Shown here piece after piece: positions 21,080-59,466 of a DNA stretch of 64,000 nt. How positions within the stretch are numbered: position 1 is the stretch's first letter; every line of letters starts with the position of its first letter. The stretch is taken from contig JACPLG010000005.1 in the NCBI GenBank assembly GCA_016186625.1, positions 36,954 through 100,953 of the forward strand. Direction: 5' to 3'. The translations under genes were made by a program, and so were the position numbers. Below the pieces are notes generated by a model. It had not been told where the DNA came from. It did no database searches and was given only the letters and a program-made list of their open reading frames with translations. Source of the DNA: Candidatus Levyibacteriota bacterium. Lineage in GTDB: Bacteria; Patescibacteriota; Microgenomatia; Levybacterales; UBA12049.

Positions 21080-21084
21080 ATTGT

Positions 21085-21105
21085 TTGAAGATTTGCTCTT
21101 TGTTA
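21085..21105. promoter_or_regulatory. near-palindrome CTTTGTTATA-g-TATAGCAAAG in the divergent cca/recJ promoter region
   Basis: 10-bp inverted repeat (9 of 10 positions) centred between the two divergent starts. Confidence 0.35.
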
Positions 21106-21132
21106 TAGTATAGCAAAGAAAAGAAGATATAA

Positions 21133-28049: not shown

Positions 28050-28103
28050 GTATTGAGTATAAGGCAGTTTTTAGTTACAATGCAAGGTGAGAGGAATGTT
28101 TGT

Positions 28104-28203
28104 TTCGGGGTCCTGCCACTCGTTTCCCTCCCGCCAGTGCTCGTTCACGAAACACTGAGCTCCGCGCTGTCGGGAGCCCTTCCACTCGTGTCACCCCTCA
28201 ACA
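28104..28203 (+). repeat. GC-rich ~100-bp element in the gltX 5' region; second copy of the recJ-inserted element; terminal inverted repeat GTTTGTTtcGGGG...CCCCtcAACAAAC
   Basis: Starts with TTCGGGGTCCTG. Contains a CTCCCG...CGGGAG inverted repeat. Ends ~20 nt before the gltX ATG. Confidence 0.6.
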
Positions 28204-32443: not shown

Positions 32444-32716
32444 TATGAAAATAATAATTTTTGGCAAAAGTAGTGACTTAGAGGATCTTTTAATAATTAT
32501 TGCCTATATCTTGATCCTTATTCTAATAGCTGCTTTAATTTGGATTTTGATTAGCCCGTTCCTTGCAGTTTTAGTCTCAATTCTTGTCTCATATCTTTTT
32601 TATCTTCGGAAAATCATTGGCAGAAAATAGTCTAAAACTGGATTTATTAGCCTCAATAAAAAAATTTGGGCACTTTACGCTTACTCAGAAAAAACAAATT
32701 TGGTATAGTTACACAT

Positions 32717-33981: not shown

Positions 33982-33985
33982 CAGC

Positions 33986-34054
33986 TGCTGGACTTGGATT
34001 CGAACCAAGATGAGCGGATTCAGAGTCCGCTATCCTACCATTAGATGATCCAGC
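33986..34054 (-). tRNA. tRNA-Gln (anticodon CUG)
   Basis: Minus-strand sequence GCTGGAT...GCGGA-CTCTGAA-TCCGC...CTTGG-TTCGAAT-CCAAG-TCCAGC-A. The acceptor stem pairs, the T-loop is canonical, and the anticodon loop CU-CUG-AA has U33 and A37. The D-arm is short, so the ends are +/- 2 nt. Confidence 0.7.
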
Positions 34055-34124
34055 AAGGCGTACTAATTTTATCTCATTGAGGCTAATAAATCCAGTTTAA
34101 ACCTACTTACTTCCAAAAATATTT

Positions 34125-34924: not shown

Positions 34925-35148
34925 ATGGTCCTAAATATTTTAAGGACAAAATCAGTATAACTTCCCCCAAAAATTCCCCTGAAAAGAAGAGTGATCAGAA
35001 AAGCTAAAGGAACTAAGATTCTGTAAGGATGGTGTCCAAGCCAAAGGCTAACTGTTGAGAAAACTTTTGAAAATGGCATATCTCTGACTATTCTCTCCTG
35101 CTCACGGGCTCTTTGTTGAAGCTTTAAAATAAATTCACCCTCGTTCAT
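34921..35148 (-). CDS. small membrane protein downstream of the ECF sigma factor (candidate anti-sigma factor)
   Basis: The listed ORF 34921..35220 overlaps the sigma-gene 3' end. The internal ATG at 35148 (MNEGEFILKLQQRAREQ...) gives a plausible 75-aa protein with one TM helix. The function is inferred from position only. Confidence 0.3.
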   Translation of the reverse strand: MNEGEFILKLQQRAREQERIVRDMPFSKVFSTVSLWLGHHPYRILVPLAFLITLLFRGIFGGSYTDFVLKIFRTI

Positions 35149-35668
35149 AAAGGATTTGGAATTGCCGCCTTGCTCTAAAAAGTAGCGATTCCGTGGCTTT
35201 AAAAGAAAGATTAAATTCAAGAGCTATTTGTTTAATAGGTATGTTATCTTCATAATGGAGTCTTAGTATCTTTCTATATTTTTCAGAAAGAGCATAGAGA
35301 GTTTTTTCAATTTTAACTCTTATCCTATTTTTTTCAAACTGGAATTCAGGCTGGTGTACCTCTTTGTCGATTATCTCAAGATAAGGAATTTGAGACAGAA
35401 GTATAGACTTTATTTTTCTCTTTCTGTAGTAATCAACCATCTTATTATGGGCAATTTTAAAAAGCCAAGCAGTTAAGTTTGAATTTCTCTGAAGAAGCTG
35501 CAGGGAATCAATTGCCTCAAGAAAAACATCATTTGTCAGATCCTCGGCGTCTTCTTTTGAAGGCAAGCGGTGAGCAAGATAATTTAAAATCTTTGGGGAG
35601 TTTGACTTATAAAATTCACTTACCGATTGGGGATCTCCGCTTTTTACCTTATCGATCAGACTTCCCAT
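35135..35668 (-). CDS. ECF-type RNA polymerase sigma-70 family factor
   Basis: Region 2 (EDAEDLTNDVFLEAI, NLTAWLFKIAHNKMVDYYRKRK) and region 4 HTH (IKQIALEFNLSFKATESLLFRARRQF). The likely start is the ATG at 35668 (MGSLIDKVKSGD). The listed ORF's 71-aa N-terminal extension runs through a GC-rich non-coding segment. Confidence 0.8.
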   Translation of the reverse strand: MGSLIDKVKSGDPQSVSEFYKSNSPKILNYLAHRLPSKEDAEDLTNDVFLEAIDSLQLLQRNSNLTAWLFKIAHNKMVDYYRKRKIKSILLSQIPYLEIIDKEVHQPEFQFEKNRIRVKIEKTLYALSEKYRKILRLHYEDNIPIKQIALEFNLSFKATESLLFRARRQFQILYERG

Positions 35669-35739
35669 AAGAAGTATTATACACAATTTTGGAGTTTTTC
35701 CGCCAGCATTTACCCTTCGCCTTTTCGATTCTATACGAA

Positions 35740-35815
35740 TACGGCTGCCTCCAGACCTGCCTGCCGGCAGGCAGGGGCGGGCAGGCATGGAGCATTGCTT
35801 GGAGGACAAGTTGGT
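35740..35815. promoter_or_regulatory. GC-rich structured segment with a perfect 20-bp palindrome CCTGCCTGCCGGCAGGCAGG (35756-35775) in the divergent sigma/HMG-CoA-reductase intergenic region
   Basis: The palindrome reads directly. Flanking CCTCCAG...CTTGGAGG complementarity extends the hairpin. A TTGACT...TATATT promoter-like pair follows at ~35833-35862. Confidence 0.5.
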
Positions 35816-35879
35816 GCGAATGATTTTTTGACTTTTTACGACTATATTAGTAAGGCTTATTGCGGCCAAAAAATCGTTC

Positions 35880-37052
35880 ATGAACTTAAGAGATTACGGA
35901 TTAGCTTCGGATAGACGAACAGTTTTAGAAAAAGAACTTAAGCTTACTCTTCCAAATATTGGCTCGTTTACCTTGGACGAAAAAATTGCAAGTTCCAGAA
36001 ATTGCGAAAACATGATTGGAGTAGCACAAGTGCCAATTGGGATTGCAGGACCGTTAAAAGTTCAAAGTTCAATCCATTCGGCAAGCTCAGGACAAGCGTT
36101 CAAAGTTCAAAGTTATTATCTGCCTTTGGCGACGACAGAGGGGGCGTTGGTGGCATCGGTTAATAGAGGATGTAAAGCAATAACAGAATCTGGAGGGGCT
36201 GTCTCATATGCGTATCGCGTTGGACAAACAAGAGGACCTGTCTTTTCAGTTAAAAACCTGGAAGAACAGAAGAAAGTTTATGACTGGATAAAAAAGAATG
36301 AAGCAAAACTAGGAAAAGTTGCAGAATCTAACTCTCAGCATTTAAAACTTTTAAGAATAAAAGTTCGGGGACTGTCAAATTACTTGTTTGTTCGATTTTA
36401 TTTTAATACGGAGGATGCCATGGGTATGAATATGGTAACAATTGCAACCCAGAAAGCGTCAGAATTAATTGAAAAAGAAACAGGAGCAAGACTTATTTCT
36501 GTTGCAGGGAATTTTGATATAGATAAAAAACCATCCTGGCTTAATTTTATAAACAATCGCGGCTTTAAAGTCTGGTCTGAGGTGGTTCTAACAAAAAAAG
36601 TTCTCAAAGATGTTCTAAAAACTAATGCTGACAAATTTTTTGAAGTATGGCTTTCCAAATGTATGATCGGATCTGCAATGTCAGGTTCGTTAGGTTTTAA
36701 CGCTCAATATGCAAATATAATTGCAGCGCTTTTTATAGCAACAGGTCAGGACCCAGCCCATGTTGCGGAGGCAAGTATGGGGATTACAACAGCAAAAGTT
36801 TTACCAAACGGAAATCTTTCAGTCTCAATTTATTTGCCTGACTTAAGCATAGGAACAGTTGGTGGGGGAACTGGACTAGCAACGCAGCAGGAAGCGCTTT
36901 CGATATTGGGTGTTGCCGGCGCAGGAAATGTCGAAAAATTCGCTGAAATTGTTGGAGCAGCAGTTTTGGCAGGAGAAATTTCATTGATATCAAGTTTGTC
37001 CGAAGGAAGTTTGGCGATTGCTCATGAGAAACTAGGGAGAGGACTGAGATAA
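35880..37052 (+). CDS. hydroxymethylglutaryl-CoA reductase, class I (archaeal/eukaryotic type)
   Basis: EDAMGMNMV motif, LATTEGALVAS, GTVGGGT and a C-terminal HxxLG. Confidence 0.85.
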   Translation: MNLRDYGLASDRRTVLEKELKLTLPNIGSFTLDEKIASSRNCENMIGVAQVPIGIAGPLKVQSSIHSASSGQAFKVQSYYLPLATTEGALVASVNRGCKAITESGGAVSYAYRVGQTRGPVFSVKNLEEQKKVYDWIKKNEAKLGKVAESNSQHLKLLRIKVRGLSNYLFVRFYFNTEDAMGMNMVTIATQKASELIEKETGARLISVAGNFDIDKKPSWLNFINNRGFKVWSEVVLTKKVLKDVLKTNADKFFEVWLSKCMIGSAMSGSLGFNAQYANIIAALFIATGQDPAHVAEASMGITTAKVLPNGNLSVSIYLPDLSIGTVGGGTGLATQQEALSILGVAGAGNVEKFAEIVGAAVLAGEISLISSLSEGSLAIAHEKLGRGLR

Positions 37053-37088
37053 TTTGAAATTCGAAATTTAAAATTGAAAATTTAAAGT

Positions 37089-38123
37089 ATGGCTGGAATT
37101 GTTAGTTACGGAGCATACATCCCTAAATATAGAATTAAACTTTCTGAAATTGTCAAGGTCTGGCAAAAAGATGAAGAAGAAATAATAGGTGGCCTTAAAG
37201 TCTTGGAAAAAAGTGTCCCGGGAGTTGATGAGGATGCAGTGACAATTGGAATTGAGGCAGGAAAAAGAGCTCTTGAGATGGCTGGACTCGCTCCTTCGAA
37301 AATTGGATGTGTTTACTTTGGATCCGAAAGCCATCCATATGCTGTTAATCCTTCATCTTCAATTGCGGCAGAATATCTGGGCATTGGACCGAATTATTTT
37401 GCTGCAGATTTAGAGTTTGCCTGTAAAGCTGCAACAGCCGGGATGCAAGTTGCCAATGCTTTGATTGAAAGCAATAAGATAAAATACGGACTCGCAATTG
37501 GCGCGGACACTGCCCAGGGCAAACCACATGATGCACTCGAATATACTGCAGCAGGCGGTGGTGTTGCTATTATTTTGGGAAAAGGGAGAGAAGTAATTGC
37601 CGAAATTTTAGATACTTCTTCTGTTACTTCGGATACCCCTGATTTTTGGAGAAGAGACGGAATGCGCTATCCTTCACATTTTGGCCGCTTCACTGGAGAA
37701 CCAGCATACTTTATGCATATTGTTTCTGAGGGAAAGAAACTTCTTGAAAAAAGTAAAATTAAACCACAGGACTTTGCCTACGCCGTATTTCATATGCCAA
37801 ACGGAAAGTTTCCTAGAGTTGCTGCTAAGAAATTAGGTTTCACTCCAGAACAAATAGCGCCGGGCCTGGTAGTTAATAGAATCGGCAATCCTTATTCAGC
37901 CTCTTCCCTAATGGGACTGGCCAAAGTTCTGGATATTGCCAAGCCGGGCCAGCGAATATTTTTTGTTTCATATGGATCAGGAGCAGGCTCTGACGGGTTT
38001 ATTTTTGAGACAACAAAAAATATAGTTTCAAAACAAAAAAAGACTGTACCGGTTGAGGTACAAATTGAAGACAAAATATACATTGACTACCCAACATATC
38101 TCAAGTTTACCCACACACTATGA
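37089..38123 (+). CDS. hydroxymethylglutaryl-CoA synthase, archaeal type
   Basis: MAGIVSYGAYIPKYRIKLSEI N-terminus, catalytic Cys block (FACKAATAG), and a ~345 aa thiolase-fold size. Confidence 0.85.
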   Translation: MAGIVSYGAYIPKYRIKLSEIVKVWQKDEEEIIGGLKVLEKSVPGVDEDAVTIGIEAGKRALEMAGLAPSKIGCVYFGSESHPYAVNPSSSIAAEYLGIGPNYFAADLEFACKAATAGMQVANALIESNKIKYGLAIGADTAQGKPHDALEYTAAGGGVAIILGKGREVIAEILDTSSVTSDTPDFWRRDGMRYPSHFGRFTGEPAYFMHIVSEGKKLLEKSKIKPQDFAYAVFHMPNGKFPRVAAKKLGFTPEQIAPGLVVNRIGNPYSASSLMGLAKVLDIAKPGQRIFFVSYGSGAGSDGFIFETTKNIVSKQKKTVPVEVQIEDKIYIDYPTYLKFTHTL

Positions 38124-39259
38124 TACACATATTGGGCGTTGCAACCACTGAATTTGGAGAACTTTGGAAGAAGTCTCCAAGAGCTTTAGCAAAACAGGCT
38201 GCGGAGGGAGCGCTGGAAGACGCAGGGCTAAAAATTAGTGATATTGATGCTTTGTTTGTAGGAAACATGCTTGCGGGAATTCTTGGAAATCAGGCAAATC
38301 TTGGTTCTTTATTTGCAGAAGAGCTAGGTTTGAGCGTCCCTGCGATAAGAGTTGAAGGGGCATGTGCTTCAGGTGGATTAGCACTTCATAGCGGCGTTAA
38401 TGGTATTTTATCAGGTCAATACAAAACCGTGCTGGCTTTGGGAGTTGAGAAGATGACAGACTCAGGACAGGATGAAGTTACAACAGGACTTATGGCCGCA
38501 GGGTCTGACAGTGAAAGAATGGCGGGCGCAACTTTTCCGGGGATTTATGCCCTTATGGCCCAGGCGTATTTGGAAGAATTTGGAATCTCTGAAGAAACCT
38601 TGGCCGGAGTTTCTGTTAAAAACCATTACCATGGGAGTCTTAACGACAAAGCGCAATTCCGCCGCGTGGTGACAGTTGAAGATGTTATGAGTAGCGGGCG
38701 AATTGCAGACCCACTGAAGCTTTTAGACTGTTCTCCTATTTCCGATGGGGCATCGGCAGTAGTGATAAGCTCGGAAAATTTAAGAAAAAGAAAACCCGTT
38801 TATGTCAGCGCCTCAGAAGTTGCCACAGACACTCTTGCTCTTCACGATAGAAAATCTTTCACGTCTTTGTCATCGGTTGTGAGAGCGTCCAAAAATGCTT
38901 ATAAAAAAGCAGGAATTAGCCCGTCGGACGTTGACGTTTCGGAAATTCATGATTGTTTTTCAATTGCCGAGGCAATTGCCGTTGAGGATTTAGGTTTTTC
39001 AAAAAGAGGAGAGGGTGCCAAAGATATTGCAACGGGAAAAATGACTTTAGGCAAGGGTAAAGTTATTACAAATCCCTCAGGTGGGCTTAAAGCATGCGGG
39101 CACCCCGTGGGAGCAACAGGGATTAAGCAGATTGTTGAGATTACCCAGCAGCTAAGAGGTGAGGCAGGAGGCAGGCAAGTAAAAAGAGCAAAAATAGGAT
39201 TAACTCATAATGTGGGAGGATCAGGAGCAGTAGCAGTAATCCACATTCTCAAAAATTGA
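38120..39259 (+). CDS. acetyl-CoA acetyltransferase (archaeal-type thiolase that partners HMG-CoA synthase)
   Basis: GACASGGLALH active-site Cys region and a C-terminal GHPVGATG motif. Start overlaps the HMGS stop. Confidence 0.85.
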   Translation: MIHILGVATTEFGELWKKSPRALAKQAAEGALEDAGLKISDIDALFVGNMLAGILGNQANLGSLFAEELGLSVPAIRVEGACASGGLALHSGVNGILSGQYKTVLALGVEKMTDSGQDEVTTGLMAAGSDSERMAGATFPGIYALMAQAYLEEFGISEETLAGVSVKNHYHGSLNDKAQFRRVVTVEDVMSSGRIADPLKLLDCSPISDGASAVVISSENLRKRKPVYVSASEVATDTLALHDRKSFTSLSSVVRASKNAYKKAGISPSDVDVSEIHDCFSIAEAIAVEDLGFSKRGEGAKDIATGKMTLGKGKVITNPSGGLKACGHPVGATGIKQIVEITQQLRGEAGGRQVKRAKIGLTHNVGGSGAVAVIHILKN

Positions 39260-39260
39260 C

Positions 39261-39563
39261 ATGATTACAACACCGGTAAAACTTTGGAGAAGACAAAAAG
39301 AAGTAGCCAGACATTTAGGACGGGAAGGTAAAATAATTTCTTGGACAATTATTAGAGTTCCTCCAAAAGCCTTTCTCAATGAAACACCCTATCCTGTTGT
39401 GATAGTTAAGATGGAAAATGGAGAAAAAATGATTGGACAGCTTGTAGACTGGCAAGATGAAGATTTGGCAGTTGGCAGAAAAGTCGTGGCAGTACTAAGA
39501 CGCTTGTTTTCAGGCGATAGCGAGAGTATAATTGCCTACTATATTAAGTTTAGGCCTATATGA
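39261..39563 (+). CDS. DUF35 OB-fold/zinc-ribbon-like scaffold protein of the thiolase-HMGS complex
   Basis: ~100-aa protein directly after the thiolase, as in archaeal thiolase/HMGS/DUF35 operons. Has the KMENGEKMIGQLVDW OB-like segment. Confidence 0.65.
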   Translation: MITTPVKLWRRQKEVARHLGREGKIISWTIIRVPPKAFLNETPYPVVIVKMENGEKMIGQLVDWQDEDLAVGRKVVAVLRRLFSGDSESIIAYYIKFRPI

Positions 39564-40615
39564 AGAGTATAAGAATCTCTGCCCCCGGGAAGCTACATTT
39601 ACTTGGAGAACATGTTGTTGTCTATAACAAGCCGGCAATTCTTGCAGCGGTTGATAAAAGATGTTTTGTAGAAATAACTCCTAGAAAAGATAAGAAAATT
39701 AAAGTATTGTCTCGAAATTACAATACTTCGACACTACGTCGTATCGAAGAAATTGTCGAAAAGTTTGAGAAAGCCCAAAAAGACTGGGAAACTTATAATG
39801 AAAATAATGACGTTTCTCTTTTGAAATCAATTACCAAGGACCCACTGGATTATCCTCAAGCAATAGTCGGACAATTTTTAAATTATTATAAAATAAAGAA
39901 AGTTGAAGGATTTGATTTAGTTATTGATTCACAGATTCCTGTTGGGTCCGGAATGGGATCATCTGGTGCTTTGTCTGTTTCAATAATCGGAGCATTGTCT
40001 TTGTTTGCGGGTAAACCTTTTAATAAAAAGATAATTAACGAAATTGCATTTTTGGCAGAGCAAAAGAAACATGGCAAGCCTTCAGGGGGAGATAATTCAA
40101 CAAGCTGCTATGGAAAATTAGTCTGGTTTAAAAAAGACGAGGGGATAAAACCATTAGGTTTTGGAGTTTCAGAAAAGATTTCAAAGAATTTCTATGTTAT
40201 AAACACAGGCACGCCTAAAGAGACAACTGGGGAGATGGTGAGTCGAGTTCGCGATCTATTCTCAAAACGAGAATTATTTGTCCAGGAGATTCTGGATAGA
40301 CAGGAAGAACTGGTAAAAGATTTGAAATTGGCTCTTGAAAAAAATATTCCGAGACAAGTTCCAGGTATTATAAAAAACGGAGAAAGAAATCTCCAAAAAT
40401 TAGGAGTTGTCTCGCCTTTTGTTCGGGGTTTAATCAGAAAAATAGAGGAAAGCGGTGGAGCTGCTAAAATCTGCGGAGGGGGAGGAAAAACCAAAGCAAC
40501 AGGAATAATTTTGATTTATCACACTGACTTGCAAAATCTTAAAAAAGTGCTACAATCCCACAATCTAAATCCAACTCAGCTTACATTGGGAGTTGAAGGA
40601 TTAAGAAAAGAATAA
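39560..40615 (+). CDS. mvk: mevalonate kinase (GHMP kinase)
   Basis: SAPGKLHLLGEHVVVYNKPAI N-terminus and GHMP motif PVGSGMGSSGALSV. Confidence 0.8.
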   Translation: MKSIRISAPGKLHLLGEHVVVYNKPAILAAVDKRCFVEITPRKDKKIKVLSRNYNTSTLRRIEEIVEKFEKAQKDWETYNENNDVSLLKSITKDPLDYPQAIVGQFLNYYKIKKVEGFDLVIDSQIPVGSGMGSSGALSVSIIGALSLFAGKPFNKKIINEIAFLAEQKKHGKPSGGDNSTSCYGKLVWFKKDEGIKPLGFGVSEKISKNFYVINTGTPKETTGEMVSRVRDLFSKRELFVQEILDRQEELVKDLKLALEKNIPRQVPGIIKNGERNLQKLGVVSPFVRGLIRKIEESGGAAKICGGGGKTKATGIILIYHTDLQNLKKVLQSHNLNPTQLTLGVEGLRKE

Positions 40616-40616
40616 T

Positions 40617-41699
40617 ATGACAGTTACTGAACAAGTAGACAGGAGAGGCCCAAGTGGTCCGAAATTTCATGATGAATCTTTAATGCCAGTTACGATGGGT
40701 ACTCCTTATCGTGTTCCAGATTATGCTTATCCGAATTGGGGCTTGGTGTATGAAGGAGAAGAAAAAGCTACTGCCGCATACAGAGCTGAGTGGGCAGAGG
40801 GTAACAAAGATCAACTTGGCTTAGTAACGAGAGCAATAGTAGAAGCGGGTTATGGAAATTTTCCTGCGCTTCTTAGGGAATCTGCCGCAAGAGCTATTAG
40901 GGAATTAGTTACATACAGAGGAGAGTCAGTTAAAATTCTTGATATTGGGGCAGGGCCAGGAACATCTGCGGATGAAGTATATGAAGCCTTAGATTCCGTA
41001 ACGCGAAGCCACACAGATATGTATCTTGTGGATCCTTCTCCAGATAGTCTTGTTGATGCAAAAGTACGCTTAGAAGGAAAAGGAAGATTTAATTTCTTTC
41101 TTCAGGGTTCAGACAGCGATATGTTACCCAATATAGATTCAAACACATTTGATGTAGTTTTGGGTGTGGCGTCAGTTCATCATCACGCTAAAATACCTTT
41201 TGAAGAATACAATCGCGTTCTTAAGCCGGGGGGATTTTTAGTTTTAGCAGATTGGCATCAGCCCTTATGGGAGCACCCGGGATCAGTTTTTGATTTTCTA
41301 GAGCAAATAGATTGGCCAAGAAAAGAAGAAGGATTAGATAATTGGCTGAGGGTTTACCCAAAGGCAGTCAATATGCCGCCACCTCCACGTAACCCTGCTG
41401 ATAGACAAGCTATAATCGAAATTACGGAGTTTTGGAAAGCATATCAAAGAATTTCTAGGGAGGCGAATCTAGGTCCAAATGCAATATGGCCGCTTGAAGG
41501 ACATAGGCCAGTAGCAAGATATGTAAAGGCAATGAAAGAAGCCGGATTCGATCTTGAAACTCCAGATATTGATAGGCTAATTAGGAATGGTGTTATTTCT
41601 CGAAATCCGCATCAAATTCTTCCAGACTCAAGTCTTTTACAGCTTTCTGTTGCACAAAAACCAAGAGATCATGAACGTACAGCAAGAATCGCAGCCTAG
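40617..41699 (+). CDS. class I SAM-dependent methyltransferase, embedded in the mevalonate operon
   Basis: Motif I ILDIGAGPGTSADEV, acidic motif II (MYLVDPSPD) and post-I VLKPGGFLVLADW. Has ~95-aa N-terminal and ~140-aa C-terminal extensions. GC is higher than the flanking genes. Confidence 0.7.
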   Translation: MTVTEQVDRRGPSGPKFHDESLMPVTMGTPYRVPDYAYPNWGLVYEGEEKATAAYRAEWAEGNKDQLGLVTRAIVEAGYGNFPALLRESAARAIRELVTYRGESVKILDIGAGPGTSADEVYEALDSVTRSHTDMYLVDPSPDSLVDAKVRLEGKGRFNFFLQGSDSDMLPNIDSNTFDVVLGVASVHHHAKIPFEEYNRVLKPGGFLVLADWHQPLWEHPGSVFDFLEQIDWPRKEEGLDNWLRVYPKAVNMPPPPRNPADRQAIIEITEFWKAYQRISREANLGPNAIWPLEGHRPVARYVKAMKEAGFDLETPDIDRLIRNGVISRNPHQILPDSSLLQLSVAQKPRDHERTARIAA

Positions 41700-41716
41700 A
41701 ATAAAACAGCTAAAAT

Positions 41717-42808
41717 ATGAGCGCTCCTGTTGAAAGAAGCCAAAGAACTTTACAGAGAAATATGGATCTGTTGATGCGATATCACGTAGCACAATCAGGC
41801 GGAGAAGTTTCAGAAGCGCATAGCCCAACGCATCTCAGAACTACTGCTAGACTTACTGAATTAGGAGGAATTTTGTATGGATTCTCTCCAAGAGAATTTG
41901 ATCTAGCTCACTTTGCAGGAGATTTCCATGATCTGGTTAGGTCACCAAGCGAAGACCCGAGTCTAAAAGATGAGGAAGTTAGCGCCAGACAAGCCGTGCT
42001 AATAATGGAGATGATGAGCGATAGAGGAGTTTTTGCCACTGATTCTCAGGAAAGAGAAGCAGTTAGATTTGCTATTAAAAATCAGGGAAAAGCTCCAATT
42101 TCTTTCCTGGACGGTTCCACAAGAGATGAGGTACCGCAGGATTTGGGTGATAGAATCCATGCAGCACTGTTTATTGCAGATAAAATTGAAGCAAATGGAG
42201 CAAGAGTAATCGCCAGAAGATCGAGTTTTGTAGCGGGAGATAGGCTTCATAATCCAGATGGTGATTGGCAAAAATTTGGTTTTGTTCCGGATAAAGACGA
42301 GGCATTAGTTGTGGCCATTGAGAGTTTGCTCAGACTTGGAATAATAAATCCTCAATATATTTATCCTGGAAAAATAAGGAGAATTATAGACCCATTGTAT
42401 GAGGTTCAAAGAGAATTTGTTAAAGGAGTATTTAAAGCAAAAGGACTTAAAGTAGGAGATGCGGCAAAGCTACTTTTAGAAAGAAAAAGGGATGATGGTA
42501 AAAACATGCTAGAAGCGAGGAAATTATCTGCTCCTGACAACGTTGAGGAGCTTGTCGCTTTTTTGCAAGAAAAAACAGGAATTACAGATGATGCAATTGA
42601 ATCAACAACGGAAGATGTTGCCAATTCGGCTATAGAAACAGTACTTTATTTCAGCAGAGACTATAAAGCAGATTTGGATAGACTGATAGCTGATTGGCTA
42701 CCAAGAGGAGAATCGGCTGAGCGATGGCAACGTCAAATGGTGGAGTATGCAGAAGGAAACTGGTTTAAGCAGGCAAGAGAACAAATTTCTTCTGATACAA
42801 TAAGTTAA
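41717..42808 (+). CDS. HD-domain metal-dependent phosphohydrolase-like protein with a C-terminal extension
   Basis: The His...HD...D pattern (HSPTHL ... HFAGDFHDLVR ... D) is visible in the first 150 aa. The remainder has no recognisable motif. Confidence 0.5.
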   Translation: MSAPVERSQRTLQRNMDLLMRYHVAQSGGEVSEAHSPTHLRTTARLTELGGILYGFSPREFDLAHFAGDFHDLVRSPSEDPSLKDEEVSARQAVLIMEMMSDRGVFATDSQEREAVRFAIKNQGKAPISFLDGSTRDEVPQDLGDRIHAALFIADKIEANGARVIARRSSFVAGDRLHNPDGDWQKFGFVPDKDEALVVAIESLLRLGIINPQYIYPGKIRRIIDPLYEVQREFVKGVFKAKGLKVGDAAKLLLERKRDDGKNMLEARKLSAPDNVEELVAFLQEKTGITDDAIESTTEDVANSAIETVLYFSRDYKADLDRLIADWLPRGESAERWQRQMVEYAEGNWFKQAREQISSDTIS

Positions 42809-43780
42809 GTGAATAAAATAACTGTTTCGGCGCCGGGGAAGTTGATGCTATATGGTGAGCACGCTGTTGTCTATAACCACCCGTGTTTGGTTACCGCAGT
42901 TGACCAGAGAATTCGTTTAACCGCAGAAGTCTTGGAAAGTTCGAACTTCGAACTTGAGGCAAGTGATGTTAAAGTCTCAAATTATAAAAAACCATTAAAT
43001 AAATTAGGAAAAGGGGATATTCCAAAAGGTGCGCAGTTTGTTGAGATAGCGGTAAAAAATACTGCAGAGCAGTACTCAATAAAAAATAAAGGATTAAGAA
43101 TAACTACGAGTTCAGAGTTTTCTTCTAAGTTTGGATTTGGATCATCAAGTGCTTCAACAGTCTGTACTGTTTTTGCACTCTCGAAATTATTTGGTCTGAA
43201 ACTTTCCAAGAAGCAATTGTTCGATATCGCATATAAAACAGTTTTGGACATTCAAGGAAAAGGATCTGGATTTGATGTGGCAGCAGCGGTCTTTGGCGGA
43301 ACAGTTTATTTTGTAACCGGTGGAAAAAAGATTGAGCCATTAAACATCGATAGTCTACCATTGATCGTTGGATACAGTGGAATAAAGGCAGATACTGTAA
43401 CTCTAATTAATCAAGTAAAAGAAAAGTTTGCTGATAATCAAAAAAGACTCGATGAGATATACAATGAGATTGATCGACTTGTTGAGAAAGTAAAACCAAA
43501 AGTTATTAATAAAAGTTGGAAAGCTGTTGGGACAGCTATGTCATCTAACCAAAAACTTCTTAAAGAGCTTGGAGTAAGCATTAAGAAGCTCGACAAAATG
43601 ATTGAAGGTGCAATAAAAGCTGGAGCGTATGGCGCAAAATTATCTGGAGCAGGCGGAGGAGATTGTATGATTGCACTTTCGCCAGAAAAAGTCCGTTCAA
43701 AAGTTGAAAAAGCTATCGAAAAAGCTGGAGGAGAAGTCATCAAAATTACCACAAACGCAGAAGGTGTTAGAATAGAATAA
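42809..43780 (+). CDS. GHMP kinase; candidate phosphomevalonate kinase (or second mevalonate-family kinase)
   Basis: SAPGKLMLYGEHAVVYNHP N-terminus and GHMP motif FGFGSSSASTV. Sits between mvk and the decarboxylase gene. Confidence 0.6.
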   Translation: MNKITVSAPGKLMLYGEHAVVYNHPCLVTAVDQRIRLTAEVLESSNFELEASDVKVSNYKKPLNKLGKGDIPKGAQFVEIAVKNTAEQYSIKNKGLRITTSSEFSSKFGFGSSSASTVCTVFALSKLFGLKLSKKQLFDIAYKTVLDIQGKGSGFDVAAAVFGGTVYFVTGGKKIEPLNIDSLPLIVGYSGIKADTVTLINQVKEKFADNQKRLDEIYNEIDRLVEKVKPKVINKSWKAVGTAMSSNQKLLKELGVSIKKLDKMIEGAIKAGAYGAKLSGAGGGDCMIALSPEKVRSKVEKAIEKAGGEVIKITTNAEGVRIE

Positions 43781-43782
43781 TA

Positions 43783-44745
43783 ATGAAAGCTACAGCTCAG
43801 ACGCCCTCTAATATAGCATTTGTTAAGTATTGGGGAAGGAAGGACGAAGAATTAAGGCTTCCAGAAAATGGAAGTATTTCCATGAATCTTTCAGGGCTTG
43901 TAACAACTACAACTGTTGAGTTTAGCGATAAGTTCGAGCAAGATGAAATTATTATAAATAGCGTCAAAGAAGATTTAGAAAATAATAGGGCAGTAAAACA
44001 CTTAGACAGAGTTCGATCGCTGGCAAAAATAAACTTAAAAGCAAAAGTTAATACTTCAAATAATTTTCCAACGGGAACCGGCCTTTCCTCATCAGCATCA
44101 GGTTTTGCAGCTCTTACTGTGGCCGCGGCTTCAGCGGCCGGTTTAAAATTATCAGAAAAGGATCTTTCGATATTAGCAAGACAAGGATCAGGATCTGCCT
44201 GCCGTTCAATTCCTGACGGATTTGTTGAGTGGTTGGATGGAGACTCAAGCGATACATCCTATGCTGTTTCCATTTTCCCTCCAGACTACCTTGATATTGT
44301 AGATGTGGTGGTAGTTGTATCAACAGAGAAAAAATTTCTGGCAACTTCTGAAGGACAAAAAACTGCCAGAACCAGCCCCTTTTTTGAAACCAGACTTAAT
44401 TTGATCAGAAATAAAATAAATCGAGTAAAAAAAGCCATCGAGGATAAAAACTTTTCAGAATTCGGAGAATTGATTGAAAGGGAAGCCTTAGAGTTTCACT
44501 CAATTCTGTTTACTTCTGCCCCCCCGTTGTTTTATTGGACACCAGAGACAGTTAAAATTATGAAGTACGTTCAGGCCCTAAGAAGAGAAGGATTGGAATG
44601 TTATTTTACGATTAATACCGGCCAGGATGTCCATGTTATTTGCAAGAAAGAAGACTCAGAAAATGTTTCAAAAAAACTTTCAGAAATTCCGGAAGTTCGA
44701 AATACGATTATTAATTTCCCATCCCCCGGCGCCCATTTGGTTTAA
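43783..44745 (+). CDS. diphosphomevalonate (or phosphomevalonate) decarboxylase, MVD family
   Basis: NIAFVKYWGRKDEELRLPENGSISMNL N-terminus, and a GTGLSSSASGFAAL GHMP-like P-loop. Confidence 0.8.
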   Translation: MKATAQTPSNIAFVKYWGRKDEELRLPENGSISMNLSGLVTTTTVEFSDKFEQDEIIINSVKEDLENNRAVKHLDRVRSLAKINLKAKVNTSNNFPTGTGLSSSASGFAALTVAAASAAGLKLSEKDLSILARQGSGSACRSIPDGFVEWLDGDSSDTSYAVSIFPPDYLDIVDVVVVVSTEKKFLATSEGQKTARTSPFFETRLNLIRNKINRVKKAIEDKNFSEFGELIEREALEFHSILFTSAPPLFYWTPETVKIMKYVQALRREGLECYFTINTGQDVHVICKKEDSENVSKKLSEIPEVRNTIINFPSPGAHLV

Positions 44746-44748
44746 TTG

Positions 44749-45804
44749 TCACATTGTATACGTGAGAAGGGCCATGGTGTTGTTTTCGTGTACCCCAAGC
44801 CCGTCGATTGCATAATATCTTTTTTTCTTTTTCATATTTTCCATGTTCGATATTATAAAACCTTTAGTATAGCTTTCGATTACTCCCGGGTGGATATAAT
44901 ATTTTCTACAAGTTGCCGGTCGATTCCTAAGAAAGTTTGCTACTTCTTTAACTGTTGCTACAATATTTTCTTTTGCGAAATTTTCCTCTTCGGTTATTCC
45001 AAGTTTGTTAAAGCGAATCGCAGCCAAGACTGTCCCGCCCCAAGTCCTGAAGTCTTTTGCGGTAATATCTTCTCCTGTAATTTCTCTTAAATATTCATTA
45101 ACATCATATGAATCAATCGTTTGAATTTGCCCATTTTCATCAAAATATTGGAAAAGATCCTGTCCTGGAATATCTTTAATACGCCTTAGAATTCTGGCAA
45201 CTTTTTTATTTCTTATACTTACCTTGTGATAGACTCCGCTTTTGCCTTTAAACTGGAAAACTACTTTATCAGTGGAATTTACTCTTCCGTGTCTTTTTTG
45301 AAGAGTAGTCAGGCCAAATGAATTATTATCTTCAGCATATTCTTCATTACCAACCCTGATTAGTGTATTTTCAAGCAGCCAAACAACTGTTGCAAGGACT
45401 ATCTCTCGTGTAAGCTTACCTTCCTCCATGTCGTAGCGCACTTTATTTCTTATTTTTGGAAGATGGCGGGCAAAATCCATAATGTGGGTAAATTTTTCTC
45501 CCTGGCTCATTTTTAGGTAGAGCGGATGATAGCGGTATTGTTTTCTTCCTCTTTTGTCATATCCAGTTGCCTGAATGTGGCCATTTGAGTAGGGAGCAAT
45601 CCAGACGTTTTTGTACGCAGGGGGAATCATTAGTTTGTTTATCCGATCAATTGTTGCCTGGTCGGTTATCCTTTTTCCGTCGGTATTAAAATAAACAAAT
45701 TTGTCCCCGATTATTTTGCGTGAGTAGCCGGGCAATTCAACCTTGCTATAGCGAAGACTTACACCTTTTAAGATGTCTTCCGTAGCCATAACCCGATTAT
45801 ACAC
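44749..45804 (-). CDS. DNA topoisomerase IB (bacterial/poxvirus type)
   Basis: N-terminal ELPGYSRKIIGDKFVYFNTDGKRI...YKNVWIAPYSNGHIQATGYDKRGRKQYRYHP resembles the TopIB core. Length ~350 aa. Confidence 0.75.
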   Translation of the reverse strand: MYNRVMATEDILKGVSLRYSKVELPGYSRKIIGDKFVYFNTDGKRITDQATIDRINKLMIPPAYKNVWIAPYSNGHIQATGYDKRGRKQYRYHPLYLKMSQGEKFTHIMDFARHLPKIRNKVRYDMEEGKLTREIVLATVVWLLENTLIRVGNEEYAEDNNSFGLTTLQKRHGRVNSTDKVVFQFKGKSGVYHKVSIRNKKVARILRRIKDIPGQDLFQYFDENGQIQTIDSYDVNEYLREITGEDITAKDFRTWGGTVLAAIRFNKLGITEEENFAKENIVATVKEVANFLRNRPATCRKYYIHPGVIESYTKGFIISNMENMKKKKRYYAIDGLGVHENNTMALLTYTM

Positions 45805-53399: not shown

Positions 53400-54012
53400 G
53401 AATAAAACTTCTGAGGGGACAATTTTGGTGTTTGCAACGGGCAGGGCAATACTTCCTTCCGTAGTCAATAAGAAGATAAGTAACTGCCCCCCAATCTTTT
53501 TTTGGAACAACTTCCATTAAGTCTTGCTCGATTTTGTTAGGATTTGCTTGCTGAGACAATCCAAACAAGTTTGATAAGCGCTTAACATGTGTATCAACCG
53601 CTATTCCTTCATTTTTTTCATAAATATTAAAAAGCAGCACATTTGCCGTTTTTCTACCAACTCCGGGAAGTTTAACCAACTCTTCCATTGAATCCGGAAG
53701 TTTACCACCGTATTGTTTGCTTACAATCTCCAAAGCTGATTTTATATTTTTAGCCTTACCTCTATAAAGGCCAATTCGTTTGATATCTTTTTCAAACTCG
53801 GGGAGAGGGACTCTTAGGTAATCAATTAAAGTTCGATACTTTTTGAAAAGATCTGCGGTGACCACATTCACTTGTTTGTCTGTAGTTTGCGCTGACAAAA
53901 CTACTGCCACAAAAAGTTCGATTGGAGTAGTGTAATTTAAAGCTATCTTGGTCTTTGGAAACAGCTTTTTGAGTTCTGAAATTAAAATTTGCGTTCTTTC
54001 TTTTTTATCCAT
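53395..54012 (-). CDS. nth: endonuclease III
   Basis: HhH-GPD (LPGVGRKTANVLL), catalytic Lys/Asp, and a C-terminal 4Fe-4S cluster loop C-x6-C-x2-C-x5-C (CPARCKHQNCPL). Confidence 0.85.
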   Translation of the reverse strand: MDKKERTQILISELKKLFPKTKIALNYTTPIELFVAVVLSAQTTDKQVNVVTADLFKKYRTLIDYLRVPLPEFEKDIKRIGLYRGKAKNIKSALEIVSKQYGGKLPDSMEELVKLPGVGRKTANVLLFNIYEKNEGIAVDTHVKRLSNLFGLSQQANPNKIEQDLMEVVPKKDWGAVTYLLIDYGRKYCPARCKHQNCPLRSFIL

Positions 54013-54102
54013 TCAAAGATTATATCAGAGGATCAATGTTTCTACTCACAATTTAATCTAATTGACACAAAGACAAAGACGTTTTATAATCCCTCGCATA
54101 TT

Positions 54103-54915
54103 ATGGCAATAGCAGAATATGGTCCCAGAAGCTCTGATGGTACACCTACGGTGGATTCATTGGAAGCAATCTACATATCTATCTGGTCGGGAAACGCTAA
54201 TATAGCGAGTAGACTACGCCCTCGAATAGCAGCGATACCCTTTTCTCCTTATTGGAGCGATAGGTTTAAGGACTTTGCAACCCTAGGAAGATATAATGTT
54301 GTGCCTGGGCAATTATTTGCACAAACTATTTATGAAGTCTCAAAACAACAAGAAGGAGAGGAGTTAAATAGAACTGTAGCTATTGAATTAGGAATTCACT
54401 CTGGGGAAGCAGTTTTGGAAGCAGCTATTGATCTTCCTCTTTCACCAGAAGCAGTTTCTTTACCCGAACTTGATCTGGAGCCTTTACCTCAGGCTTTATT
54501 GGCCATACGACTAGCTATAGAAACATCTAAATATATACTGCATCCTGCTCCTAGAGTAATATCTGATAGTTGGATCTATTTTATTCAGCGCCTTGCTTCG
54601 GAAGATTCAATAAAGTACAGTGCTCTGTCTGCTGAATTGATGAGGAAGTTGGGAAATACAGCCATTGAAGTTCAATCTATTAGAGCAGAGGAGGCGGGAT
54701 TGCTAGGGGGATTTAACGATTTTAACAGAGATCACGAAATAAGCTGCGCAATAGCGGAAGTCTTAGCCCATCATTTTCCCACAATTGTCCTTCAAGGATT
54801 AACAGAGGCTCCGAAATACGTTTTTTATGAGCCTAGGTTAGGAGGTAGACTAAACCCGCCCGTTCCAGAAGAAGATCTGCTTGAAAGAAATGTCTCGCCT
54901 GTATTAACTGAATAA
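54103..54915 (+). CDS. hypothetical protein (A/L/E/P-rich, compositionally atypical)
   Basis: The listed ORF begins at 53989 and overlaps the nth start. The internal ATG at 54103 (MAIAEYGPRSSDG) is more plausible. I recognise no motif. Confidence 0.35.
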   Translation: MAIAEYGPRSSDGTPTVDSLEAIYISIWSGNANIASRLRPRIAAIPFSPYWSDRFKDFATLGRYNVVPGQLFAQTIYEVSKQQEGEELNRTVAIELGIHSGEAVLEAAIDLPLSPEAVSLPELDLEPLPQALLAIRLAIETSKYILHPAPRVISDSWIYFIQRLASEDSIKYSALSAELMRKLGNTAIEVQSIRAEEAGLLGGFNDFNRDHEISCAIAEVLAHHFPTIVLQGLTEAPKYVFYEPRLGGRLNPPVPEEDLLERNVSPVLTE

Positions 54916-58043: not shown

Positions 58044-58421
58044 TTGGAAGGTATCAAGGGTACCACATGTATCAGAAGTATCACGGGGAGAACTGTTCGA
58101 GTGTTGACAAACTTATCAATTTGTGGCATTAATTAGTTAATGGCTAAAAGAAAGGTAAGAAGATCAACTCATCACAAAGTAACTTGGGCCGGATTTTCCA
58201 CATCCCAGCTCATAATTATATTCACAATCTTTATCCTTTTCGTCATCTTCTACTTGATGTAGATTTGCAGTTTATACCCCTGACCGGATTGAAATCGATG
58301 TGCGAAGCTATTCCACATCGGAAGTGGAATAGGTATGCGCATCGGGAAAGTTTAGATTTGTTTTGAGGTTTAATTTGAGGTAAGATAGGCACAGGCCGCC
58401 ATCGCCCGCCGGCCAAAGCGA

Positions 58422-58495
58422 GGCCCCATCGTCTAGTGGTTTAGGATATCTGGTTCTCATCCAGAAGATCAGGGGTTCGAATCCCCTTGGGGCTA
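58422..58495 (+). tRNA. tRNA-Glu (anticodon CUC)
   Basis: GGCCCCA-TC-GTC-TAGTGGTTTAG-GAT-A-TCTGG-TTCTCAT-CCAGA-AGATC-AGGGG-TTCGAAT-CCCCT-TGGGGCT-A, 74 nt. Close to E. coli tRNA-Glu. No encoded CCA. Confidence 0.75.
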
Positions 58496-58499
58496 CAGA

Positions 58500-58614
58500 G
58501 GCCAAGCGGGCAGGTCTAGTGGTTCAGGACATCGGGTTCCCCGCCAGCAACGCTTTGCGTAGCAATTTTCGGGCTGGTCATCCCGAAAATCACGGGTTCG
58601 ACTCCCGTTGGCGG
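58500..58614 (+). ncRNA. tRNA-like element of unresolved structure (canonical D-arm and T-arm/3' acceptor; ~35-40 extra nt in the anticodon region; no complementary 5' acceptor strand found)
   Basis: GTCTAGTGGTTCAGGAC duplicates the tRNA-Glu D-arm. ACGGG-TTCGACT-CCCGT-TGGCGGT-A is a canonical T-arm plus acceptor 3' strand. TCGGG...CCCGA could form an anticodon stem bracketing a 44-nt insert. Confidence 0.3.
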
Positions 58615-58662
58615 TACGCCTCGTCAAACTCTTCAGGGTGAGCTTCAGATTTAACTCAGCAC

Positions 58663-58688
58663 AAGCAATTTGTTTGCTTTTTTTCTTT
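58663..58688 (+). terminator. intrinsic terminator AAGCAA-tttgt-TTGCTT followed by a T-run
   Basis: 6-bp stem plus TTTTTTCTTTCTT, directly after the tRNA cluster. Confidence 0.5.
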
Positions 58689-58690
58689 CT

Positions 58691-58698
58691 TGTATAAT
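58691..58698 (+). promoter_or_regulatory. extended -10 promoter TGTATAAT; predicts a leaderless transcript starting at the GTG at 58705
   Basis: TG-n-TATAAT reads directly. 6 nt separate it from the in-frame GTG. Confidence 0.45.
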
Positions 58699-58704
58699 CC
58701 AATT

Positions 58705-59466
58705 GTGGCTGATAAAGTTTATCTTTCTGTTGTAATTCCCTCTTACAATGAAATGCCAAATCTTCGAAAGGGGGTACTCGACAAGATTGATCACTATCTT
58801 TCCCGTCAAAAATATTCTTGGGAAGTAATTATTGTGGATGATGGCTCAGATGACGGGTCATGGGAATTCTTTGATGAATTTGTTAAAGAAAACAGGAACT
58901 TCCGCCTTATTAAAGGTTCGCACTTGGGAAAAGCAGGTGCAGTAACAGCGGGAATGCTTGAAGCCAAAGGAGAAGTTCGATTGTTTACAGATATGGACCA
59001 GGCAACACCAATTGAGGAGACAGAAAAACTTCTGCCGTTTGCTGGTGAAGGTTTTGATCTAGCTATTGGTTCACGAAGCACCAACCGCAAAGGCTCACCG
59101 TTTTCCCGCAGAATTATGTCCCGCGGCATGATTGTTCTTAGGAAATTGATGGTGGGTTTGTATAACATAGAAGATACTCAGTGCGGATTTAAGATATTTA
59201 CAGAAGAAGCTGCCAATAAGCTTTTTAAAAAAATTTATGATTTTCATCACGGTTTTTCAAAGATTCACGGATCAAATGTAGCTGCAGGATTTGATATAGA
59301 GCTCCTATATCTTGCAAATAAGTTTGGTTATAAAATCAAAGAAGTTCCGGTTGAGTGGCTTTATGTTGAGTCAAGACGCGTCAGCCCGATTAATGATTCA
59401 ATCAATGGAATTGTGGATTTACTCCGAATAAGAGCAAATATTTTTAAAAAAGCTTACACCAATTAA
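58705..59466 (+). CDS. family-2 glycosyltransferase (polyprenyl-phosphate sugar synthase-like, CsbB/GtrB-type)
   Basis: LSVVIPSYNE, IIVDDGSDDGS and DMDQATP (DxD) motifs. The listed ORF starts at a TTG (58690). No in-frame ATG precedes the conserved N-terminus, so GTG 58705 is proposed. Confidence 0.7.
   Translation: MADKVYLSVVIPSYNEMPNLRKGVLDKIDHYLSRQKYSWEVIIVDDGSDDGSWEFFDEFVKENRNFRLIKGSHLGKAGAVTAGMLEAKGEVRLFTDMDQATPIEETEKLLPFAGEGFDLAIGSRSTNRKGSPFSRRIMSRGMIVLRKLMVGLYNIEDTQCGFKIFTEEAANKLFKKIYDFHHGFSKIHGSNVAAGFDIELLYLANKFGYKIKEVPVEWLYVESRRVSPINDSINGIVDLLRIRANIFKKAYTN

Follow-up and report, generated by a model that had tools for sequence, protein, structure and literature searches.

What is the tRNA-like sequence that lies directly downstream of a tRNA-Glu(CUC) gene, around position 58,500 of a 64,000-nt stretch of Candidatus Levyibacteriota bacterium DNA (contig JACPLG010000005.1; the whole stretch is referred to below as the window)? 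The surroundings are bacterial, a ~38% GC genome with bacterial genes in the window, and a Lon protein of 100% identity together with named relatives places the organism in Candidatus Levybacteria (Patescibacteria). A first-pass annotation had picked out a D-arm like that of tRNA-Glu, a helix, a hairpin, a T-arm, a 3' acceptor strand and a discriminator base, all of which are found in the sequence. It had wavered among an intron-containing or otherwise non-canonical tRNA, a degenerate duplicate of tRNA-Glu and a tRNA-derived structured RNA. The first is the right description of the gene: the sequence belongs to a second tRNA-Glu(CUC) gene, hereafter the host, which is interrupted twice, and the annotated tRNA-Glu(CUC) is nested in one of the two inserts as its cargo.

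The host tRNA-Glu(CUC) gene and its inserts

The composite is laid out as follows:

58358..58386, + strand: candidate sigma-70-type promoter (TTGTTT - 17 nt - TAAGAT), picked by eye, 8/12 consensus positions, putative
58395..58403, + strand: host exon 1, GCCGCCATC, with positions 1-7, U8 and C9 (G58404 could be G10); unique in the window, identified by complementarity and fold
58404..58513, + strand: insert 1, 110 nt, in the D-stem at 9/10 (or 10/11, one G being ambiguous); its arms pair in the minimum-energy fold and its termini are homologous to those of other inserts
58422..58495, + strand: cargo of insert 1, a complete canonical tRNA-Glu(CUC) gene, CCA not encoded (ARAGORN; RF00005, 63.6 bits)
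58514..58539, + strand: host exon 2, with the D-arm, position 26, the 5' strand of the anticodon stem and U32, U33 and C34
58540..58577, + strand: insert 2, 38 nt, in the anticodon loop at 34/35, no cargo: CCCGCCAGC-AACGCTTTGCGT-AGCAATTTTCGGGCTGG
58578..58616, + strand: host exon 3, with U35, C36, A37 and U38, the 3' strand of the anticodon stem, the variable loop, the T-arm, the 3' acceptor strand and the discriminator A

The downstream part of the host comprises the D-arm GTCTAGTGGTTCAGGAC (58514-58530), the anticodon-stem strands TCGGG (58532-58536) and CCCGA (58582-58586), the T-arm ACGGG-TTCGACT-CCCGT, the 3' acceptor strand TGGCGGT (58609-58615) and the discriminator A (58616); the hairpin ATTTTCGGG-CTGGTCAT-CCCGAAAAT spans 58565-58590. 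The TCGGG/CCCGA helix had been described as bracketing a 44-nt insert; the helix stands, and the span is 45 nt, made of seven loop nucleotides plus a 38-nt insert. The first-pass annotation had also spotted GCCGCCA upstream of tRNA-Glu, one base off (it starts at 58395, not 58396), and had raised a nested arrangement only as its implication. That arrangement is correct: GCCGCCA (58395-58401) is the true 5' acceptor strand of the host, and it is followed by TC(G), positions 8-10 of tRNA-Glu. In the minimum-energy fold of 58390-58620, computed unconstrained, GCCGCCA pairs with TGGCGGT and the annotated tRNA-Glu sits inside a bracket of 6 + 4 bp (GCCCGC-C-GGCC paired with GGCC-AA-GCGGGC). Joining 58395-58403, 58514-58539 and 58578-58616 gives 74 nt that ARAGORN calls as tRNA-Glu(ctc), with all 21 stem pairs formed and the cloverleaf of the tRNA family (RF00005) complete once both inserts are removed. 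The joined host is identical at 73/74 positions to an uninterrupted Daviesbacteria gene (L008, GCCGCCATCGTCTAGTGGTCCAGGACATCGGGTTCTCATCCCGAAAATCACGGGTTCGACTCCCGTTGGCGGTA), the single difference lying in the D-loop, and deletion of exactly the 38 nt of insert 2 yields the loop TTCTCAT, as in L008. The nested structure is not a chance resemblance, because GCCGCCATC occurs once in 64 kb against 0.17 occurrences expected anywhere in the window, the minimum-energy fold is nested and the joined pieces make a tRNA-Glu. The uninterrupted genes in L004-L018 read GCCGCCATC at positions 1-9, and when species-representative genomes were scanned for the host 3' end (TTCGACTCCCGTTGGCGGTA), 15 loci were found, 13 of which hold an uninterrupted tRNA-Glu (UUC or CUC), the named records being mostly Patescibacteria.

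The identity of the host follows from these homologues. The first-pass annotation had proposed an anticodon CCC (Gly); the homologues show the loop UUC/UCAU (the slash marks the junction), so the host is tRNA-Glu(CUC) and its insert lies at 34/35. The junctions can be slid by one base (UU/.../GUCAU), and an anticodon GUC (Asp) then arises, but only if both junctions are slid, as ARAGORN -i does. We disfavour the Asp reading: plain tRNA-Glu genes have the same body, and both C and U occur at position 34, as among the Glu isoacceptors. The idea of a degenerate duplicate is half right: there is a second tRNA-Glu gene, but no degeneration in its exons; they match the inner tRNA-Glu(CUC) at 62/74 positions, with no long identical stretch, and the gene is interrupted rather than decayed.

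Standard tools see little of this. Over the 64 kb, ARAGORN reports two tRNAs only, tRNA-Gln (33984-34055, - strand) and the inner tRNA-Glu(CUC) (58422-58496), with no standard call for the element itself. Searched as uninterrupted DNA, 58506-58616 matches the Rfam tRNA model with 32.3 bits (gathering score 29), at the price of a 42-nt insertion in the anticodon loop, two acceptor-stem non-pairs and GCGGGCA borrowed as 5' strand. The tRNA match proposed as a check is thus there, on the wrong acceptor strand, and the acceptor mismatches arise because the model is blind to the true 5' strand.

The two inserts belong to one family. Insert 1 (start CCCGCCGGCCAAAG, end GGCCAAGCGGGCAGG) consists of a 5' arm GCCCGC-C-GGCC, a linker AAAGCGA, the cargo tRNA, a linker CAGA and a 3' arm GGCC-AA-GCGGGC-AG. 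Despite its D-stem site, its termini (CCCGCC[G/T]GCCAAAG ... G(G)CGGGCAGG) are plainly homologous to those of inserts found at 34/35 in the metagenome loci L038, L074 and L025, which start CCCG[C/T]CTGCC(AAAG) and end (GGCA-T-)GGCGGGCAGG. Insert 2 (start CCCGCCAGC, end CGGGCTGG) is a small relative that sits at the usual 34/35 site and holds no cargo; its ends, CCCGCC...CGGGC[T]GG, agree with those of the family, and it has no Rfam match at E<=10. In every member the arms pair with each other over 10-20 nt, the longest helix being 20 bp (L046), as in CCCGCCTGCC with GGCA-T-GGCGGG; GGCGGGCAGGTCA is an example of a host 3' half with its 3' arm sequence. The second arm helix differs between L038 and the window by one compensatory change, U-A to G-C. 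L041, L043 and L095 have the arms of L038, L074 and L025 in reverse-complement form (compare CCTGCCCGCCAGTGCC with the reverse complement of GGCATGGCGGGCAGG), while the insertion point is unchanged and the cargo keeps its sense orientation. The 34/35 junctions contain no repeated nucleotide and exon lengths sum exactly to a plain gene, hence there is no target-site duplication; the 9/10 site shares one ambiguous G. The flanks of the two window sites resemble one another (ATC/G...G/GTCT or TCG/.../TCT, compared with TTC/.../TCA). The family therefore has the complementary terminal arms of small transposable elements with inverted repeats (MITEs, derived from DDE transposons), and lacks their target-site duplication both at the window inserts and at the 34/35 sites.

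A promoter and terminator scan (threshold 9/12) found nothing near the element, TTGTTT-17-TAAGAT falling below the threshold; this candidate promoter would place the transcription start at about host +1. Only 18 GC-rich nucleotides separate host exon 1 from the cargo, which leaves no space for a promoter of its own, so transcription must come from upstream of the host.

Recurrence across Patescibacteria

Metagenome contigs were scanned for a tRNA-Glu D-arm and loop in which position 35 is not T, a pattern that finds 5' halves only; about 100 loci are listed, and counts taken from them are lower bounds. At least 13 of the listed loci carry a tRNA-Glu 5' half that ends at position 34 and continues into C-rich sequence. 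In L038, L074, L025, L041, L043, L061, L046 and L115, this C-rich arm is followed by a short linker, a complete tRNA-Glu, a complementary G-rich arm and the host 3' half (which has an extra insert in L115). The interruption lies almost always at 34/35. At least nine further Patescibacteria nests or remnants are among the metagenome matches listed, besides two 5'-half remnants reached otherwise: L017, from the genome scan, and L124, found through RNase J synteny, where the ATG of the next gene lies 15 nt past the cargo. L025 falls in Sungbacteria/Parcubacteria by its neighbour genes, so the insert family spans Microgenomates, Parcubacteria and unclassified Patescibacteria. The deepest nest, L046, has at least four levels around an intact innermost gene; its middle host has a T-loop UCCGAAU and one stem mismatch, and its outermost host (GGCCTCA...; L046 1-700) carries extra cargo-less hairpin inserts at 12/13, at 26/27 and in the T-arm. 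A scan of viral contigs for the host-plus-arm pattern gave zero matches.

When seven hosts are joined in silico, 146 of 147 stem cells are paired (99.3%) and 13 pairs differ in both partners; such values never arise in 500 shuffles, and sliding the partners by one column lowers pairing to 49-59%. What lies apart in each composite thus belongs together as the two parts of a genuine tRNA gene. Might the composite be an assembly chimera or a chance resemblance, with pieces of two tRNA-Glu genes mis-joined? The window does come from a metagenome-assembled genome, and short repeats of tRNA paralogues can confuse assemblers. Yet the same architecture appears with different sequences in independent JGI, ENA, NCBI and Logan assemblies, host and cargo (62/74) offer no long identical stretch, the conserved arms at the junctions occur in neither plain gene and the exons sum exactly to an intact gene; we thus regard a chimera as extremely improbable.

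Host and cargo have the same anticodon in 8/8 intact two-level nests, seven being CUC/CUC and one UUC/UUC (L041). Intron-permissive ARAGORN calls some of the hosts Asp or Arg. The composites turn over: on Sungbacteria contigs near RNase J (78-80% identical) and TrpRS, one finds an intact nest (L025), a remnant (L124) or a plain gene (L125), with a different tRNA-Glu sequence in each. Likewise, the composite downstream of lon is absent in 6/6 relatives with 85-94% Lon identity (L001-L003, L019-L021), so there is no conservation of the locus; in L002 and L020 a lone tRNA-Glu(CUC), distinct from these, lies on the opposite strand and adjoins a GT2 gene.

Together with the middle and outermost hosts of L046 and the 3' half of L115, partial composites form what looks like a decay series. 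In L017, L049, L070/L091/L095/L114 and L124, only the host 5' half and the 5' arm remain ahead of an intact tRNA-Glu. Such remnants could suggest that host pieces and arms are never joined but have been co-opted, either as a stable processing or protective stem around the cargo (cf. the stems that flank rRNAs) or as a tRNA-like decoy or regulator. This would account for the 7 + 6 + 4 bp bracket around the cargo in the fold, for host 5' halves that are 100% conserved in L070, L095 and L114 while the following sequence has diverged, and for the persistence of 5' halves ahead of many plain tRNA-Glu genes. However, such a bracket is missing around most tRNA-Glu genes in these lineages, 3' halves easily disappear, and retention of the 5' half is more simply explained by its position between promoter and cargo. 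Co-option is thus improbable in our view.

Several loci vary the theme. L040 (- strand, ~1989-2115) and L042 (- strand, ~4205-4310) are solitary, CCA-encoding tRNA-Glu genes on ~52% GC contigs, otherwise intact; their anticodon loops are interrupted at the same position by inserts (51 and 33 nt) that hold no cargo and have pyrimidine-rich and purine-rich arms (CTCCTTTCA...TGAAAGGAG). In L053, L064 and L119, tandem arrays of 2-4 copies of a tRNA-Glu 5' half (ending ...GGCCCTTA) precede one intact tRNA-Glu(CUC), each copy being followed by GCCC[G/A][A/T][A/G]GGG[T/C]GTATGCC[A/G]AAACC... and an AT-rich, promoter-like stretch. In the Daviesbacteria loci L006 and L018, a hairpin stands just 5' of a plain tRNA-Glu gene; in L018 it starts with a copy of the acceptor 5' strand, GCCGCCGAGTCAAATTCGGCTGG, and L006 has a similar GCCGTCGAGTCAAACTCGACTGGC.

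Insertion in DNA or splicing of RNA

Interruptions of bacterial tRNA genes have been ascribed to group I or group II introns only (PMC13011429). Neither fits here. A group I intron (RF00028) has a P3-P9 core and at least 200 nt, whereas insert 2 has 38 nt and insert 1 has 110 nt, of which the tRNA takes up 74. A group II intron, with six domains and at least 400 nt, is excluded by length; the inserts have no group II match in Rfam, and no reverse-transcriptase domain was found in the scanned open reading frames (ORFs) of the window. Over 58300-58720, Rfam at E<=10 returned tRNA and weak Plastid-ycf2/psbl-rps4 and mascRNA matches only, with no intron or ribozyme family and no match to hammerhead, twister, hatchet, pistol or hairpin ribozymes. 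We also scripted a search for the archaeal/eukaryal bulge-helix-bulge (3-nt bulges on either side of a 4-bp helix, cut after the second bulge nucleotide) in seven inserts, with junctions shifted by up to 3 nt (49 registers) and in two polarities: at the required junctions H, h and h' score only 1-3, 1-2 and 1-3 out of 4, 3 and 3. Exon GUUC can pair with GGGC near the insert 3' end, and the resulting fold, similar to a bulge-helix-bulge, recurs at offsets of 2 nt and 1 nt; if it were cut in the canonical way, the anticodon loop would have 10 nt. Among ~58 ORFs of at least 150 aa in the 64-kb window, none has an RtcB, EndA, transposase, integrase or homing-endonuclease domain (a CCA-adding enzyme gene is present at 19730-21166, - strand), and a literature search produced nothing linking EndA to Patescibacteria.

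Other known arrangements do not match either. Palindromic elements derived from IS200/IS605 have a subterminal hairpin of its own at either end and insert in one orientation, 3' of one fixed tetra- or pentanucleotide; the present inserts are not of this type, as their ends pair mutually and both orientations occur at one site. The host is not a split tRNA of the Nanoarchaeum type, in which separately transcribed halves are joined in trans at a bulge-helix-bulge made by complementary leaders: its halves are colinear, on one strand and within 222 nt, with no space for a promoter and no bulge-helix-bulge. Site-specific recombination with a shared core was rejected after working the junctions by hand, as no core of 1-2 nt fits them.

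Could the inserts nonetheless be true RNA introns, spliced precisely at 9/10 (or 10/11) and 34/35, so that one transcript yields both the host and the cargo tRNA-Glu? An endonuclease might act with a ligase of the RtcB or Rnl type, or the arm helix might direct cuts by RNase P/RNase Z that are then ligated, with the arms in the role of the archaeal bulge-helix-bulge or of a split-tRNA helix. Much in the hosts is consistent with this: they are perfect cloverleaves with many compensatory changes, the junctions are nucleotide-exact in every nest and the arm helix brings both junctions together. In distant lineages the termini (CCCGCC... / ...GGCGGGCAGG) have been kept where the rest has diverged, the U-A to G-C change in the second arm helix is compensatory, cargo-less inserts occur within otherwise intact solitary genes, and archaeal tRNA genes with several introns at varied positions are known (PMC10714607). 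Against splicing stand the lack of an intron or ribozyme match at E<=10, the unmatched bulge-helix-bulge register with its 10-nt loop at the nearest fold, and the absence of RtcB and EndA genes from the window. The two arm orientations put the 4-nt spacer on opposite strands, which would be awkward for a structure-reading nuclease; host and cargo are mostly redundant; decay remnants are frequent, the outermost host of L046 being riddled with inserts; and a related element in recJ (below) keeps the reading frame and is hence translated. Splicing therefore seems to us unlikely, though it deserves to be taken seriously. Doubtful too, and slightly more so, is the broader proposal of a third kind of bacterial intron, namely short hairpin-armed tRNA introns without ribozyme or bulge-helix-bulge, often holding a complete tRNA, that would be excised and ligated by proteins.

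We favour, with moderate confidence, insertion at the level of DNA: a hairpin cassette that would disable the host and supply a replacement tRNA from the host promoter. Short GC-rich hairpin elements would insert cleanly, in either orientation and with no target duplication, and would strongly prefer the TTC/TCA site in the anticodon loop of tRNA-Glu. An element that carries tRNA-Glu would then be a promoter-less replacement cassette: it would knock out the resident gene, whose promoter would transcribe the whole composite, RNase P and RNase Z would release the cargo tRNA from the transcript, and the host pieces would be a mere structured leader and trailer, decaying over time. The cargo itself holds the target site, so that repeated insertions could build Russian-doll nests. 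We prefer this cassette because both orientations occur, because insertion is clean at one DNA position and because host and cargo mostly share their anticodon; the decay series, the missing splicing signature and the in-frame recJ elements point the same way. Judging by sequence comparison, the host is likely dead, given the same anticodons, the decay series and remnants, the turnover of the neighbourhood and the lack of an intron motif. The retained 5' halves fit a position between promoter and cargo.

A number of observations weigh against the cassette. No candidate for a mobilising enzyme is encoded in the 64-kb window. Hosts are pristine in 7 of ~10 complete nests, and the window host is without any defect; neutral pseudogenes should carry more point damage, unless the insertions are recent. 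The cargo-less inserts in otherwise perfect solitary tRNA-Glu genes (insert 2; L040, L042) are also troublesome, as a gene-lethal insertion is hard to tolerate. Conservation of the termini is strong where cargo and hosts have drifted apart through compensatory changes, which would suit an RNA-processing signal as well, and the arms juxtapose both junctions, much as archaeal split tRNAs do with their complementary leaders. L049, L124 and the middle host of L046 are possible exceptions to the same-anticodon rule. Finally, the excess of 5' remnants is partly a matter of ascertainment, the search pattern finding 5' halves only.

Related elements lie outside tRNA genes. GC-rich islands in the window (65-80% GC) form one family that starts TCGGGGTCCTG...CCCGCC and ends ...CACCCCTC. 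One of them, in recJ (~21755-21865 within ORF 21133-22896), is ~110 nt long, up to 80% GC, starts TTCGGGGTCCTG and adds ~35 residues in frame (RGPVSLHPRPTSSSASGRTAGARRGSPALTTPHPD; RGPVSLHPRP...) between the DHH and DHHA1 domains. The nearest RecJ orthologues (552 aa) are without these residues, and RecJ proteins from other Levybacteria are interrupted at this site by "RGP..." inserts that differ from this one, and at other sites by additional ones. The frame is kept, which implies that such elements are translated and not removed from RNA. Read from sequence, the recJ element thus supports a DNA-level insertion resembling Rickettsia palindromic elements for the wider family, whose tie to the tRNA inserts would run through short motifs. 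Another island (28103-28200) is intergenic, directly 5' of gltX (the GluRS gene, 28223-29617), and has chance-level Rfam matches only; a further member lies just past lon in L001 (4880-5040; 92% Lon identity). The gltX and L001 islands have 17/19 nt (GTTTCC..CCCGCCAGTGC) in common with the host/insert junction of the nested tRNA-Glu(UUC) in L041 (z ~6).

Elsewhere in the window, a GC-rich palindromic patch at 35740-35800 (CCTGCCTGCCGGCAGGCAGGGGCGGGCAGG), inside a sigma-70 family ORF (35135-35881, - strand), contains the GGCGGGCAGG motif. The malic enzyme ORF (32666-33901) has several 60-nt windows above 62% GC (32883-33037, 33256-33346 and 33599-33692), in a 2-kb bin of 46.5% GC compared with ~38% for the window; these patches could be of foreign origin or be more embedded GC-rich elements. 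An ORF of ~270-308 aa (53989-54915, + strand), with no Pfam or NCBIfam match, occupies ~900 nt between HhH-GPD glycosylase and DUF1003 genes that are adjacent in L001-L003, L020 and L021, and may be a lineage-specific insertion, as this gene order suggests. A mevalonate-pathway cluster (35880-44745; HMG-CoA reductase, thiolase, an ACP synthase III-like protein, GHMP kinases and diphosphomevalonate decarboxylase) adjoins a bacterial type IB topoisomerase (44749-45804, - strand).

Known disrupted tRNA genes and significance of the composite

How does the composite compare with known systems? Like the disrupted tRNA genes of archaea, with their bulge-helix-bulge introns at non-canonical positions, their multi-intron genes and the "intron transposition" of Thermoproteales, it has short, protein-free inserts at several positions, related sequences at different sites and paired termini. 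It differs in being bacterial, in lacking the bulge-helix-bulge (and, in the window, EndA), in the two orientations, the whole-tRNA cargo and the many decaying hosts. It resembles the split tRNAs of Nanoarchaeum equitans (including tRNA-Glu) and the tri-split tRNAs of Caldivirga in that parts lie apart in the DNA with GC-rich complementary sequences at the break, and excision of the cargo would leave a host much like them; here, however, one transcript holds both halves with a tRNA between them, the break falls at 34/35 or within the D-stem and not at 37/38, and any joining is only putative. Group I introns at 35/36 in tRNA-Asn/Asp genes of Patescibacteria (PMC13011429) share with it the phylum, an unusual position in the anticodon loop and a history of being missed by standard annotation, but the present inserts (38 and 110 nt) are too short, have no Rfam match and affect another tRNA species and position. 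Rickettsia palindromic elements and MITE-like repeats are likewise short, ORF-less hairpins found in intergenic DNA, in frame in protein genes (recJ here) and in RNA genes. In contrast to both, the present inserts are GC-rich in an AT-rich genome, show no target-site duplication at the tRNA sites and have a strong preference for one nucleotide position of one tRNA species, and in some of them the hairpin loop holds a complete tRNA gene. Integrative elements and prophages of tRNA genes also disrupt at or near the anticodon loop and keep tRNA function through supplied sequence, but they measure kilobases, come with an integrase gene, leave a duplicated attachment core and rebuild the gene that they entered, whereas a cassette of ~110 nt brings a separate, whole tRNA gene here and the host stays split. 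The archaeal tRNA-Trp intron that encodes a C/D box small RNA is a further parallel, with a functional small RNA within the interruption and on the same precursor; there a guide RNA sits in a bulge-helix-bulge intron known to be spliced, here the cargo is a tRNA, mostly with the anticodon of its host, and splicing is putative. Our literature search (nested, intron-encoded and split tRNAs in bacteria; palindromic elements of Microgenomates) returned nothing matching, although the arrangement may be described elsewhere.

A bacterial tRNA gene is thus interrupted twice by something that is neither a group I nor a group II intron, and one of the interruptions holds a complete tRNA gene with the same anticodon. 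Standard tRNA finders miss or mislabel such hosts, and the nests provide datable layers for studying how tRNA genes turn over. Through their resemblance to split and intron-containing tRNAs of archaea, they also bear on the long-standing debate over the origin of disrupted tRNA genes. If the inserts are spliced, then cut-and-ligate tRNA splicing would exist in Bacteria, one transcript would give two tRNA-Glu, and Patescibacteria nests would be a living model for the origin of split and intron-containing tRNA genes. If the cassette interpretation is true, they would reveal a new strategy of selfish DNA, in which a minimal cassette destroys a gene, replaces its product and takes its promoter.

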